A stretch of 64,000 bases of DNA from Amphiscolops sp. MND2022 (lineage: Eukaryota), in assembly GCA_964187785.1 (NCBI GenBank), contig OZ076409.1, forward strand, positions 1,550,001 through 1,614,000, in the 5' to 3' direction. Below the pieces are notes generated by a model that was not told the DNA's origin, ran no database searches, and saw only the letters and a program-made list of their open reading frames with translations. A program made the position numbers and the translations under genes. This document shows positions 43,975-64,000 of the stretch, one piece after another; within the stretch, counting starts at the first letter, position 1; every line of letters starts with the position of its first letter.

Positions 43975-46900
43975 TGTGAAGTGCTTGTTGAGTTGGTAGG
44001 AAAATTGATGAATCTATATCCTTCTTTCAATTAGCGAAAGCTCTTTTAAGAATGTTCAAAATTAGTGATTTTTCTTCCTTCAGTTTTTCTCTTTGAATTC
44101 TTGAATGGTGCTAATTATAAGTCTCAAATATTGTCAAATTTATAAACTCTTAGTTCGCTTCTCTTCTATTTTCCTGACTGAAAAAGAAAATATTCTCGTA
44201 CATAAAATTTTCGCTATATTGCCTTCCAGCACTTACACAAAGGAAATCTCAGGTTTGAGTTCGAACGGAAGGACTTTATTTTTATGACCCGGGAAAAAAA
44301 GAGTGTTTGGGTTCAAAAATAGGTGAATTGAACCTTCCTTTATTTATACTAAAATTGTAATAGATATCAGTTATACAAAAGCAAAACAAACAAATTAGGC
44401 TAAATAAACAAAATACAACTAATGCTGGTTTAATATCAATCTTTAAATAATATAAGTTAGGTTACTAGGAAAGGGTTATTAAATTAAGTTACTAGGAAAT
44501 AAACCGTAAAGTTTTTATTATGTTTTGTTTTATCAAGTCAGAGGTTAGGCCTCTTTTCTAAAGTGCAGCTAAAAGCTTGCACGGCGTTTATAGTCCACCG
44601 ATTGCCACGGACTGGGAAAGATAGCGAATTGCTATTCTTTGGGTTTAGAACAACGCTTCGTTGTACTATTTTTATAGAGCGCTACACGGCTACTCTTTGT
44701 CTCAAGTTGAGAACGGTCCGACTTGAAGAGTCAGACAATGGTAGGAAAATTGATGAATCTATATCCTTCTTTCAATTAGCGAAAGCTCTTTTAAGAATGT
44801 TCAAAATTAGTGATTTTTCTTCCTTCAGTTTTTCTCTTTGAATTCTTGAATGGTGCTAATTATAAGTCTCAAATATTGTCAAATTTATAAACTCTTAGTT
44901 CGCTTCTCTTCTATTTTCCTGACTGAAAAAAGAAAATATTCTCGTACTTAAAATTTTCGCTATATTGCCTTCCAGCACTTACACAAAGGAAATCTCAGGT
45001 TTGAGTTCGAACGGAAGGACTTTATTTTTATGACCCGGGAAAAAAAAGAGTGTTTGGGTTCAAAAATAGGTGAATTGAACCTTCCTTTATTTATACTAAA
45101 ATTGTAATAGATATCAGTTATACAAAAGCAAAACAATCAAATTAGGCTAAATAAACAAAATACAACTAATGCTGGTTTAATATCAATCTTTAAATAATAT
45201 AAGTTAGGTTACTAGGAAAGGGTTATTAGATTAAGTTACTAGGAAATAAACCGTAAAGTTTTTATTATGTTTTGTTTTATCAAGTCAGAGGTTAGGCCTC
45301 TTTTCTAAAGTGCAGCTAAAAGCTTGCACGGCGTTTATAGTCCACCGATTGTCACGGACTGGGAAAGATAGCGAATTGCTATTCTTTGGGTTTAGAACAA
45401 CGCTTCGTTGTACTATTTTTATAGAGCGCTACACGGCTACTCTTTGTCTCAAGTTGAGAACGGTCCGACTTGAAGAGTCAGACAATGGCTAAGTTATTTA
45501 AGTCTCTTATAACCCAGCTGAAGCTGTGGTTTTTAGTTTAGAGTCAGTGAATACCACCAGACTTTGGTTTAGAGTCCACTATAAAGCAGGGACTATTCAA
45601 TCTTTGTTGAACAAAGACGGTATAATAGCTTCTGTTCGAAGTCAAAAGTCAACTGAAACTCCAACGTAAGAGAATGATTGCTCTAGCTTGAGAGCAGACT
45701 TGAAATTGTCTTTGGCTCGAGAATAGTGTTGAAAATTGCTTAGGATAAGATTGCTTCAGCTAGGAAGCAGGCTTGACAAAAGTTTAAGATAGAATTGCTT
45801 AACTTGAAGCAGCGTTGAGAATTGTCAAAGGTAAAATTGCTTCAGCTAGGAAGCAGGTTTGACAAAAGCTTAAGATAGAATTGCTTTACTTGAAGCAGCG
45901 TTGAGAATTGTCAAAGATAAAATTGCTTCAGCTAGGAAGCAGGCTTGACAAAAGCTTAAGATAGAATTGCTTTACTTGAAGCAGCGTTGAGAATTGTCAA
46001 AGATAAAATTGCTTCAGCTAGGAAGCAGGTTTGACAAAAGCTTAAGATAGAATTGCTTTACTTGAAGCAGCGTTGAGAATTTTCAAAGATAAAATTGCTT
46101 CAGCTAGGAAGAAGGCTTGACAAAAGCTTAAGATAGAATTGCTTTACTTGAAGCAGCGTTGAGAATTGTCAAAGATAAAATTGCTTCAGCTAGGAAGCAG
46201 GATTGACAAAAGCTTAAGATAAAATTGCTTTACTTGAAGCAGCGTTGAGAATTGTCAAAGATAAAGCTGCTTCAGCTAGGAAGCAGGCTTGACAAAAGCT
46301 TAAGATAAAATTGCTTTACTTGAAGCAGCGTTGAGAATTGTCAAAGATAAAATTGAGCCAAGACTTATAAAATTTTAAGTGCTAATGATTTAAGTTAAAG
46401 AAAAAAGACTTAGAAAAATTTAAAGTGAAAGCTCCGAAAGGAAAATTGAAAAGATTTTAACTAACAAATACTGCGCCGCGCTGATGATGGCAGTTGAACT
46501 CGTGCAAGGAGATGGAGAGGTTGGAGTGGTCGGGTTTGTGGATTTAGTATTATTCCAAAAGAAGAGCTCTGAGAGTTGAAAATTTGGTCTGCTTTTATAC
46601 TAAATTTGACCGCTTCGTCAGCCAATAAAATCGAATCACTATCGTGATTGGCTGACGAGCATGACGTCATATGACGTCAAGTCAAATGACTTTAGAAACG
46701 AAAGTGTTTTGTATGTGTTATTCGCAGGCGTAGCGTCCACGACAAAATGATGTCATTTGACGCCATGACCAAATAAGGAATGTGTGCAGCGTCGCTGAAC
46801 AAGGGAGTGAACACGTTCGAGCGTGTTCAAAATTCAGAGCTGAGCGAGAAAATGATAAAGATAAAACTGCGCAAGTTACGAAAGATAAAATTACATATTA

Positions 46901-46977
46901 CGAGTTTTGAGTTTATTTCTTTTCGAGTTTTTACGGTAAGTTTCTTTCTTTTTGTTTGCCATAAGTCGCACACGACA
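43975..46977 (-). repeat. Gypsy 3' LTR (inner boundary tentative)
   Basis: Matches 63184-64000. The inner end is inferred from cccgggtgaga|TGTCG (PPT-like sequence plus TG) on the minus strand. Confidence 0.7.
45745..46355. repeat. About 7 x 86-bp tandem repeat within the LTR
   Basis: ttgcttcagctaggaag-type unit recurs at 45751, 45837, 45923, 46009, 46095, 46181 and 46267. Confidence 0.95.
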
Positions 46978-47035
46978 TCTCACCCGGGTTTCAAGATTGA
47001 AGAAAATGTAACGGGGGTACGCAGGTTGTTGTTGT

Positions 47036-48262
47036 TCATTTTGGTTCTTCCAGATTGACTTCGATGAACATCGTGTCATTCAGAATGAATGGGGAGTTGC
47101 TTTTGAAGAGTTGGCTGTGTGGGATCAGAAAGGGGAAGCATATGCTCGGGCTCCCGTAGCTTGTACAAGGTCGTATAAAACAGGCTGAATTTTGGTTGTC
47201 TTTTGGGTCTACTATTTTTGTCCAGGTATCACTGGGCTCACTCAAATTGATTACAATAATTCGGAAGATTTGCTTGAAAGGCCAAGAGAGGATTGGGTCG
47301 AACTCACCGGGAAGGATGTTGATAACTAGTGAAGCGCTTTTTCCAGTAGCAGGAGAACATCCATAAGGATAAAGTTTCATATCAAAGAGGTACCCATGAT
47401 TTGAGGTGTAAAACGGAGGGCTGTGAAAGTTACAAGAAATTTTGGGGTGCGGGTCGATGCCTTTTTGCCTTTCTAGTTCAGCAGCCTTTGCATTATCATA
47501 CATAAGGCTGAAGGAGCTAATTCTCCAGATTAGCTTTTTATCTCTTCCGCAATCAATGCTGTGAATCCGATCATAAAGATCCATTGTTAATCTTTTAAGG
47601 GGTTTCAGTTCAGCAAGTTGTTCTTGAGTATTTGCTGATTCGGGTTCAGTTGAAGAAGAGGTAAAGAGAGGAGTATTTACAGGTTGTTCTACTGATTGTG
47701 TTGCAGTTAACTTCTCGTGAATGATAGTCTGAAGGGTTTGAATATTAATTTGGAGTTGCTGAATACTTCTATCTTGTTGCCTTCGTAGATTCCTTTCATG
47801 TTCCAGTTGTTCTGAAAGGTTTGCAACTTGTAATTGTGTTGCATGCAGGTATTGTGCGTTTTTGAGGTTGCTAATTGGGAACTTGCTAATGAGCATCTTC
47901 ATCTGTGTGAGGTCGTCGTTGGTGCATGTAGGTTGGCTGAGATTTGCTATTTGACTTTGTAGTGTTGTAATTTCAATTTCCATAGCAGCTAATCTAAGGT
48001 TGAATTCCTCTATTAATTGTTTTTTCATTTTGTTTTCAAATGAAAGCAGAGCCCGAAGGGGTACTGATAGTCTCGGGTTTTTGAAAACGGTGTTTTCAAT
48101 AGTAAATTCTTGTCTTCTTGAATCCCAGAAAATAATTTTCCACTGATTGACGTCTTCTTTAAGTGTGTAGTTGAGATTGTAATGAAATCTGGGGTTCCTT
48201 GTTTTTGAATACTTTCGAGCTGCTTCTTCACTTTTCTTTTGTTTTTCGAGTGCTTGCCTCAA
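47036..48262 (-). CDS. TRAF-like protein (coiled coil + MATH/TRAF-C domain, no RING or zinc fingers)
   Basis: LIWRISSF..FHSPPFYTSNHGY..MKLYPYG..SL..LPGEFDPILSWPF..CFIRP..FILNDTMFIEV; intronless; the true start is probably near 48481, behind lesions. Confidence 0.88.
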   Translation of the reverse strand: MRQALEKQKKSEEAARKYSKTRNPRFHYNLNYTLKEDVNQWKIIFWDSRRQEFTIENTVFKNPRLSVPLRALLSFENKMKKQLIEEFNLRLAAMEIEITTLQSQIANLSQPTCTNDDLTQMKMLISKFPISNLKNAQYLHATQLQVANLSEQLEHERNLRRQQDRSIQQLQINIQTLQTIIHEKLTATQSVEQPVNTPLFTSSSTEPESANTQEQLAELKPLKRLTMDLYDRIHSIDCGRDKKLIWRISSFSLMYDNAKAAELERQKGIDPHPKISCNFHSPPFYTSNHGYLFDMKLYPYGCSPATGKSASLVINILPGEFDPILSWPFKQIFRIIVINLSEPSDTWTKIVDPKDNQNSACFIRPCTSYGSPSICFPFLIPHSQLFKSNSPFILNDTMFIEVNLEEPK

Positions 48263-63162: not shown

Positions 63163-63180
63163 GCCTCACTGGTCGCACCA
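63163..63180 (-). promoter_or_regulatory. Primer-binding site (18 nt, tRNA 3'-end complement)
   Basis: TGGTGCGACCAGTGAGGC, 3 nt from the LTR end; the plus strand reads as T-stem/acceptor/CCA; tRNA isotype not determined. Confidence 0.85.
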
Positions 63181-63183
63181 GTT

Positions 63184-64000
63184 TGTGAAGCGCTTGTTGA
63201 GTTGGAAGGAAAATTGACGAATCTATATCCTTCTTTCAATTAGCGAAAGCTCTTTTAACAATGTTCAAAATTAGTGATTTTTCTTCCTTCAGTTTTTCTC
63301 TTTGAATTCTTGAATGGTGCTAATTATAAGTCTCAATTATTGTCAAATTTATGAACTCTCAGTTCGCTTCTCTTCTATTTTCCTGATTGAAGAATGAAAA
63401 AATTCTCGTACATAAAATTTTCGTTATAATGCCTTCCAGCACTTACACAAAGGAAATCTCAGGTTTGAGTTCAAACGGAAGGACTTTATTTTTATGACCC
63501 GGGAAAAAAGAGTGTTTGGGTTCAGAAATAGGTGAATTGAACCTTCCTTTATTTATACTAAAATTGTAATAGATATCAGTTATACAAAAGCAAAACAAAC
63601 AAATTAGGCTAAATAAACAAAATACAACTAAATCTGGTTTAATATCAATCTTTAAATAATATAAGTTAGGTTACTAGGAAAGGGTTATTAAATTAAGTTA
63701 CTAGGAAATAAACCGTAAAGTTTTTATTATGTTTTGTTTTATCAAGTCAGAGGTTAGGCCTCTTTTCTAAAGTGCAGCTAAAAGCTTGCACGGCGTTTAT
63801 AGTCCACCGATTGTCACGGACTGGGAAAGATAGCGAATTGCTATTCTTTGGTTTTAGAACAACGCTTCGTTGTACTATTTTTATAGAGCGCTACACGGCT
63901 ACTCTTTGTCTCAAGTTGAGAACGGTCCGACTTGAAGAGTCAGACAATGGCTAAGTTATTTAGGTCTCTTATAACCCAGCTGAGGCTGTGGTTTTTAGTT
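63184..64000 (-). repeat. Gypsy 5' LTR (partial)
   Basis: Matches the LTR starting at 43975, with about 20 visible differences over about 815 nt. Confidence 0.95.

Follow-up and report, generated by a model that had tools for sequence, protein, structure and literature searches.

Env-carrying Gypsy elements are usually described as having a gag-pol-env organization, and host-manipulating accessory genes are seen as characteristic of complex vertebrate retroviruses and of large DNA viruses. The 64,000-nucleotide stretch analyzed here (hereafter the window; C1:1550001-1614000, where C1 is contig OZ076409.1) comes from the 1.07-Gb assembly of Amphiscolops sp. MND2022. It holds most of one Ty3/Gypsy-type element with long terminal repeats (LTRs), in which a TARG1-type macrodomain lies within Pol and a TRAF-like open reading frame (ORF) follows env.

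Among the closest described systems are Ty3/Gypsy elements with an ENV of the gB type, termed ancient errantiviruses, which include carriers of Chuviridae-like glycoproteins and are widespread in metazoa (Chary and Hayashi, eLife 2026, PMC13524379). These elements resemble the family described here in their gag-pol-env order, their LTRs, a tRNA-type primer-binding site (PBS) and the many near-identical copies that indicate recent transposition. Their env is likewise related to Chuviridae-type glycoproteins, called in that paper structurally similar to herpesvirus gB (PMC13524379). The terms "macro", "TRAF", "MATH" and "accessory" do not occur in its main text. Judged by that main text, the present family is set apart by its length of about 19.5 kb, its 2.3-kb LTRs, the macrodomain that its pol contains, and the placing of env between three small ORFs and a TRAF-like ORF. 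Mosquito BEL/Pao elements have also captured a Chuviridae-like glycoprotein as env (Dezordi et al. 2020, PMC7642597; PMC10084718), but they belong to another superfamily, marked by Peptidase_A17 where the family here has the Ty3/Gypsy domain set, and in the available parts of those two papers neither a macrodomain nor TRAF is mentioned. LTR retrotransposons of bdelloid rotifers carry modular extra ORFs, among them a dUTPase, a GDSL esterase, a DEDDy exonuclease and env (Rodriguez, Kenefick and Arkhipova 2017, PMC5408684). Their captured modules differ from those found here, and the abstract names neither a macrodomain nor TRAF.

The present family adds five coding modules, namely the macrodomain in Pol, the three small ORFs and the TRAF-like gene. 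A preliminary description of the locus had treated such a combination as not known from earlier accounts. In agreement with it, we found no report of a macrodomain or a TRAF gene in an LTR element among the open-access papers searched by title and start of abstract.

Results

A stable, recently active family

Genome searches with parts of the element returned 517 candidates for the LTR piece, 1020 for the macrodomain, 2127 for the TRAF-like gene and 8914 for env, numbers that are not copy numbers. Only the best candidates were scored, 95 for TRAF, 150 for the macrodomain and 63 for env. Pol frames of at least 1842 amino acids (aa) are open in 45 of the 150 best-scored macrodomain matches. Env is free of stop codons in 52 of its 63 best-scored matches, and among the 63 are seven with equal scores and 100% identity. 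A macrodomain lies upstream on the same strand in 86 of the 95 best-scored TRAF matches, across a gap of 8.3 to 17.7 kb (median 10.6 kb).

Eight sibling copies on six contigs were compared with the window copy, and all are collinear with it. One of them, 19,513 bp long, has open frames for gag (436 aa), pol (1853 aa), env (713 aa) and TRAF (384 aa) between LTRs that are 100% identical over 2358 bp; another sibling has an LTR pair 99.7-99.8% alike. The order common to the family is a 2.3-kb LTR with an array of 86-nt units, the PBS, gag, pol, a spacer, three small ORFs, units with a hairpin and a TATA-like motif, env, the TRAF-like ORF and the 3' LTR. Dozens of copies look recently inserted. 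The family, called family 1 below, is thus a high-copy, recently active set of env-carrying Ty3/Gypsy LTR elements of about 19.5 kb in an animal genome.

Ratios of nonsynonymous to synonymous change (dN/dS) were computed by the Nei-Gojobori method, with only the open-frame copies among the eight siblings and the window copy (four for pol and five each for gag, env and TRAF). Values are 0.04-0.07 for pol (deep pairs), 0.10-0.20 for gag, 0.06-0.27 for env with one shallow pair at 0.58, and 0.13-0.40 for TRAF. The macrodomain taken alone gives 0.06-0.17, from 10-24 synonymous against 5-10 nonsynonymous changes. Between subfamilies, therefore, gag, pol, env and TRAF are all under purifying selection. 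In the same pairs of copies, synonymous divergence reaches 0.40-0.60 in TRAF and up to 0.32 in env, compared with 0.18-0.24 in pol; the higher values toward the 3' end hint at recombination between subfamilies or at faster change there.

Searching the genome with the Pfam MATH models revealed a second multi-copy set, with TRAF frames of 257 aa, treated here as a second lineage (family 2). One member, at about 40.08-40.10 Mb of contig C7, has gag (472 aa), pol (1853 aa) and env (718 aa) frames followed by a 187-aa frame and the TRAF frame, and its LTR pieces are 99.9% alike. Identity to family 1 is 50% in gag, 69% in pol, 60% in env and 27% in the TRAF domain, and relatives of the small ORFs occur in the spacer at 25-36% identity. 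In both second-lineage copies examined (C7:40080000-40099999 and one other), the 187-aa and 257-aa frames share one reading frame, with two stops within 18 nt between them.

Because of the co-occurrence in 86 of 95 matches, the purifying selection and the layout that the second lineage shares, the macrodomain, env and TRAF are stable modules of the family rather than accidents of the window copy. Siblings without these modules, or repeats without a common target-site duplication, had been named beforehand as outcomes that would speak against a single element with accessory genes; neither was found.

Compared with the open sibling proteins, the window copy has gag split over three frames, pol interrupted by at least five frame changes and at least 12 stops, and env by at least two frame changes and at least 13 stops. 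The TRAF-like ORF is its sole open element frame. The window copy is a decayed, inactivated one; intact gag, pol, env and TRAF frames are found together in a sibling but not here, where gag, pol and env are broken.

Pol and env

In the open sibling pol (1853 aa) the domains are Asp_protease_2 (residues 50-137, a weak match), RVT_1 (673-797), RT_RNaseH (860-991), Integrase_H2C2 (1293-1351) and rve (1371-1466). This is the order protease, reverse transcriptase (RT), RNase H, integrase, and the pieces in the window follow it as well. The sibling env matches PF24664 with E 1.1e-39 (136 bits), and the window env with E 2.2e-5 (23.1 bits, below the 27-bit cut-off); a sequence search of the PDB with env gave no match. 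The chuvirus-like homology of env proposed in the preliminary description is upheld by the sibling, although what the window retains is remnants that score below the cut-off. That description had also called the element a complex retrovirus. Env-carrying Ty3/Gypsy element is the better name, and the copy at hand is dead.

The macrodomain

The macrodomain region matches PDB chain 2l8r (TARG1/OARD1) with E 2.1e-23 and 86 bits, query residues 31-157 aligning to chain residues 25-148, and gives a marginal match to the Pfam Macro model (E 0.015). The TARG1 catalytic pattern TKx(30,35)Px[IL]GxGxD contains the nucleophile K84 and D125 (PMC6397177). It occurs at 60329-60457 of the window and in all eight family-1 siblings, and with the match to 2l8r it confirms the in-frame TARG1-type macrodomain that had been read from the translation.

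Macrodomains of some positive-strand RNA viruses counter PARPs. Those domains sit in replicase polyproteins, as the present one sits in Pol, while the likeness to TARG1/OARD1 (PDB 2l8r, 4j5r) consists of sequence homology and the TK...PxIGxGxD pattern. The domain differs from both in being part of a retroelement Pol, placed between protease and RT, and its enzymatic activity is a prediction.

When the macrodomain region alone was searched against 5.8 billion proteins, two unrelated Gypsy-type pols were found that carry a macrodomain with the TARG1 pattern at other positions. In one (P0057) it follows the integrase, and in the other (P0059, an uncharacterized sawfly protein by its NCBI name) it follows RNase H. 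Their macrodomains are 38-39% identical to that of the window element, and their RT regions 26-29%. The TARG1 pattern is present also in the replicase of a virga-like virus (P0060). The sequence comparison suggests that TARG1-type macrodomains have been captured repeatedly by retroelement pols, and their presence in unrelated ones suggests a wider theme.

The TRAF-like ORF

The last gene of the element, ending 58 nt before the 3' LTR, encodes a TRAF-type MATH domain (PF21355, E 2.6e-21). Matches to PDB chains of TRAF5, TRAF4, TRAF3, TRAF1, TRAF2 and TRAF6 range from E 5e-15 to 2.4e-7; those to TRAF5 (4gjh, E 5e-15), TRAF4 and TRAF3 lie between 5e-15 and 2e-12. The TRAF3 chain 8zuk aligns over residues 70-326, and heptad-like sequence, suggestive of a coiled coil, can be seen by eye. 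Pfam models (E up to 0.01) matched neither a RING nor a zf-TRAF domain, whether in the window ORF of 445 aa or in the sibling ORF of 384 aa. The gene had been described as a RING-less TRAF-type MATH gene, and these results bear that out; since no RING or zf-TRAF match was obtained, we term the product TRAF-like, apparently a TRAF-domain-only protein, and not a canonical TRAF. Over residues 12-112 the TRAF ORF of the window shares 47% identity (E 2e-27) with the C-terminal part of the 187-aa frame in the second lineage, a likeness which indicates that in the accessory gene a conserved N-terminal domain precedes the apparent coiled coil and the MATH domain.

Like the cellular TRAF1-6, the product has a TRAF-C/MATH domain, with an apparent coiled coil ahead of it. 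It differs from them in that RING and TRAF zinc fingers were undetected, in its own conserved N-terminal domain and in being encoded by an LTR element. The solved TRAFs share about 30% identity with it, and the single-copy locus closest to it in the same genome shares 47%. Precedent for a virus-encoded TRAF-like protein exists in ORF111L of the iridovirus ISKNV (PMC3352826).

The single-copy locus just mentioned (C3:90865567-90872881) is split; its MATH domain (PF21355, E 6.7e-23 for that exon) is 47% identical to family 1, and part of its coiled coil 44%. Among genome matches of the coiled-coil exon, the next-best come from element copies that are 33-50% identical to it, and the nearest relatives of the locus in the genome are the element TRAF genes. 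Zinc-finger Pfam families were not found in its upstream exon, and a word-index protein search with the TRAF ORF returned 14 unnamed element-type proteins and nothing else. On this comparison the TRAF-like ORF probably descends from a cellular TRAF captured in intronless form, with the C3 locus as candidate source. The tail of a BEL/Pao integrase lies just upstream of the C3 locus.

Proposed role of the modules and alternatives

The architecture of the family, its stability, the purifying selection and the recent activity are the observations that an account of the modules has to accommodate. The best explanation, to which we assign a probability of about 0.6, is that the window contains an old, inactive copy of a stable Gypsy family whose macrodomain and TRAF-like ORF counter host defence, the first being directed against PARPs and the second against TRAF/NF-kB signalling, as we infer by analogy. 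Because the Lys/Asp pattern of TARG1 is kept, the macrodomain most likely strips proteins or nucleic acids of ADP-ribose. It would travel with Pol and undo a PARP-type modification that the host places on proteins, RNA or complementary DNA of the element, in the way that some RNA-virus macrodomains do. The TRAF-like protein resembles TRAF-domain-only, dominant-negative forms and most likely oligomerizes through its coiled coil; it could occupy the binding partners of TRAFs or mix with the cellular TRAFs, and signalling that depends on TRAFs would be blunted during expression of the element or on its entry into a cell. If the modules do act on host PARP and TRAF pathways, then those pathways would be shown to restrict retroelements in this animal and the family would be a natural system for the study of such conflict. 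More tentative, and in our judgement somewhat doubtful, is the wider proposal that the element lineage encodes its own antagonists of innate defence, a Pol ADP-ribosylhydrolase and a fast-evolving intronless TRAF decoy, and that ADP-ribosylation is a general means of restricting retroelements.

Several observations weigh against the favoured explanation or limit it. The co-occurrence of the modules is drawn from the best 95 of 2127 TRAF and the best 150 of 1020 macrodomain candidates. The macrodomain of the second lineage is homologous but has AK in place of TK and PKIEDGLD in place of PKIGCGLD, and does not match the strict TARG1 pattern. The first ATG in the 445-aa TRAF frame of the window comes no earlier than residue 116, and in most family-1 copies the sequence corresponding to the first 30-40 residues of that ORF is interrupted by stops. 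The TRAF domain changes fast, with 27% identity between the lineages and dN/dS up to 0.40, which fits an arms race and also weaker constraint. Transfer may also have run in the reverse direction, from the element TRAF gene to the C3 locus.

An alternative that we consider unlikely, yet deserving of weight, is that both modules serve the replication of the element itself. The macrodomain would then clear PARP1-type ADP-ribosylation at reverse-transcription intermediates or at integration breaks, and the protein with the MATH domain and coiled coil would act as an adaptor, bringing in a host factor that assists particle assembly, trafficking, nuclear entry or the export of RNA. Retention and purifying selection apply to this explanation just as well, and a macrodomain fused into Pol beside RT is expected to be packaged along with the replication machinery. 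In general, MATH domains act as adaptors that bind peptides, and the CERV protein of Cer1, an accessory protein of an LTR element, reportedly has a role in RNA export (PMC10309623). The far faster divergence of the TRAF domain than of pol and env is more typical of conflict at a host interface than of housekeeping factors in replication, and the finding of TARG1-pattern macrodomains at differing positions in unrelated pols points to a generic benefit; neither point is decisive against a replication function.

A neutral-passenger origin, as host sequence transduced once and kept with no function, is improbable for either the TRAF-like gene or the macrodomain. LTR elements do capture host sequence, and the open TRAF frame in a dead copy may be due to chance, for which a rough estimate is about 0.3. 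The dN/dS values of both modules between subfamilies disfavour such an origin, as do their retention in two lineages 31% apart in pol, the macrodomain accompanying nearly all of the best-scored TRAF matches and the catalytic pattern kept in all nine family-1 copies examined.

Boundaries and features of the window copy

The element spans 21,488 bp, from 43975 of the window to the equivalent of window position 65462, and every element gene in 43975-64000 lies on the minus strand, in agreement with the single strand noted before. Feature coordinates are collected in Table 1. Both LTRs, 2.28 kb in length, start with TGTCGTG and end with CTTCACA (TG...CA), and the target-site duplication GTCT flanks the element on both ends. 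The sequence just past the window end (L019, positions 1-1462) matches 45539-46977 of the window at 96.1%. Together the two LTRs are 96.2-97.4% alike, with 97.0-97.4% for the part at 63100-64000, which indicates that the copy is old. These ends, with the PBS and a polypurine tract (PPT), support the claim that the matching LTRs belong to one element. The preliminary description was mistaken as to their boundaries and length: the repeats of 0.75 kb on which it relied (43994-44741, 44739-45488 and 63203-63950) are merely 3' parts of the 2.28-kb LTRs, and the 5' LTR passes the end of the window.

The locus is one LTR element, not two. That it combines several separate elements or results from misassembly, its repeats coming from different insertions and its genes being unrelated neighbours, is most improbable: the window does end within the 5' LTR, the copy does have a tandem LTR piece and a foreign insertion, and the locus does sit in an inverted segmental duplication, but GTCT flanks the 2.28-kb LTR pair, the eight siblings on six contigs are collinear along their full length, and sibling LTR pairs up to 100% identical enclose the same gene order, so that a composite or nested origin is refuted for the element as a whole.

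Table 1. Features of the element and its insertion, in window coordinates
Feature	Position	Strand	Remarks
3' LTR	43975..46977	-	3003 bp; TGTCGTG start at 46977, CTTCACA end at 43975; GTCT at 43974-43971
745-bp tandem duplication inside 3' LTR	43994..45488	-	junction near 44739-44741
86-nt tandem array, 7.1 copies	45744..46355		inside LTR
PPT-like purine-rich GGGTGAGA	46978..46985	-	directly upstream of 3' LTR; putative function, from sequence
TRAF-like 3'-terminal accessory ORF, 445 aa, open	47036..48373	-	stop TGA 47038-47036; PF21355
env remnants, Monjiviricetes/chuvirus-like fusion glycoprotein	48510..50649	-	PF24664
Four copies of ~73-nt unit	50981..51503	-	between small ORF C and env
Small ORF remnants	51607..52461	-	B 52461-52129 (2 stops); C 52036-51607 (1 frameshift); A mostly deleted
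125-nt tandem repeat, 2.1 copies	52838..53100		spacer between pol and small ORFs
Private 1,708-bp insertion	53586..55293	+	antisense to element; toti-like capsid-type ORF
pol remnants	56054..61605	-	protease 61605-61183; macrodomain and RT frame 60994-59012; RNase H 58854-58366; integrase 57959-56352
TARG1-type macrodomain	60215..60727	-	in frame between protease and RT, inside 660-aa frame 59012-60994
gag remnants, three frames, CCHC zinc knuckle	61554..62857	-	Retrotrans_gag (Pfam); knuckle read in translation
PBS-like 18-mer TGGTGCGACCAGTGAGGC	63163..63180	-	3 nt after 5' LTR
5' LTR, 3' part	63184..64000	-	extends to window-equivalent 65462 (C1:1615462), where second GTCT lies

The 86-nt array is found also in the 5' LTR and in the LTRs of siblings. 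The 745-bp duplication is private to the window copy and is absent from a 98%-identical duplicate locus described below. The PBS-like 18-mer occurs exactly in nine of the 43 loci examined, eight of family 1 and one of family 2. No tRNA genes were found in the 64-kb window, and no Rfam family reached its gathering score in 43900-64000.

The region between pol and env

In the siblings, three small paralogous ORFs stand in tandem here, A of about 117 aa, B of about 111 aa and C of about 148 aa. All three are conserved between subfamilies and belong to no known family; A and B share about 50% of their residues, and C is about 20% like A. The degenerate ORF of no recognized kind noted earlier is indeed degenerate in the window, although it is the remnant of these three ORFs, which are intact in siblings. 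No Pfam family was found for ORF A. Its AlphaFold model (mean pLDDT 69.8) gave no Foldseek match in the PDB at E of 0.001 or less, the best being the N-terminal domain of SAS-6 at E 0.25. The best wide VIA-align score was Z 4.9, and Atlas gave no usable match.

The structured repeats that had been noted are present in the region, as the units of about 73 nt and the 125-nt repeat, and in the LTR as the 86-nt array. Read in the sense of the element, the unit of about 73 nt has an 8-bp hairpin followed by a TATA-like motif resembling TATAAATA, and a 20-mer of the unit is found in two or three exact copies in each of the eight siblings. RNA folds of the units were not clearly better than those of shuffled sequences (z -0.04 to -1.97). 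As a guess, the units might act as an internal promoter.

Segmental duplication and a toti-like insertion

The sibling nearest to the window copy (C1:1657651-1675091) is 98.3-98.5% identical to it. Both flanks are shared, at 96.7-97.4%, in inverted orientation, so this locus is a segmental duplicate and not an independent insertion. The inverted duplication takes in about 37875-64000 of the window and C1:1651000-1681300, with arms of at least about 30 kb that are 96.7-98.5% alike and lie about 44 kb apart. Positions 43130-43784 of the window have no counterpart in the other arm.

The preliminary description passed over a plus-strand insertion private to the window copy, which contributes most of a 579-aa frame (stop to stop, 53590-55329). 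The insertion is missing from the 98.3-98.5% identical duplicate and from other subfamilies, and GAGTTTTCTT is found on both of its sides. GC content is 0.476 in the 2-kb bin 54001-56000, which covers most of the insert, against 0.38-0.39 in the neighbouring bins. The insert consists of a leader and 531 codons with no stop of its own, the frame closing in element sequence, and no RNA-dependent RNA polymerase (RdRp) is present in it.

The ORF is single-copy in the genome; elsewhere there are weak paralogs, 28-44% identical to it. Two of these (34-44%), at C13:37672000-37681999 and C7:42138000-42147999, lie beside retroelement fragments, and no Pfam match to RdRp was found near them. No Pfam match and no PDB sequence match were obtained with the ORF, a word-index search returned only the ORF itself, and Atlas gave only weak, phage-capsid-like rows (0.82-0.84). 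Its AlphaFold model has a mean pLDDT of 34.2 and is unusable for fold comparison. Four distant relatives of 697-1047 aa (E 2e-12 to 2.2e-5) emerged from a phmmer scan of 1.84 billion representatives, and the longest contigs of their clusters measure 4-9 kb. One metagenome contig of 5,952 nt encodes the relative as ORF1 (tblastn E 9e-11) and, after it, an ORF2 with Pfam RdRP_4 (E 4.5e-12). An ORF1 relative directly upstream of an RdRP_4 ORF2 is the likeness to toti-like (Ghabrivirales-type) double-stranded RNA viruses; the insert differs from these in being a 5' fragment only, lacking RdRp. We read it as cargo unrelated to the element, a probable fragment of a toti-like RNA virus, the leader and most of the capsid gene, that would have entered the window copy alone, after the segmental duplication. 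Absent from a duplicate so nearly identical, it would be a datable case of RNA-virus sequence entering an animal genome.

Elsewhere in the window, an open BEL/Pao frame of 1920 aa lies on the minus strand at 19056-24818, with Peptidase_A17, DUF1759, DUF5641, integrase and RT domains.

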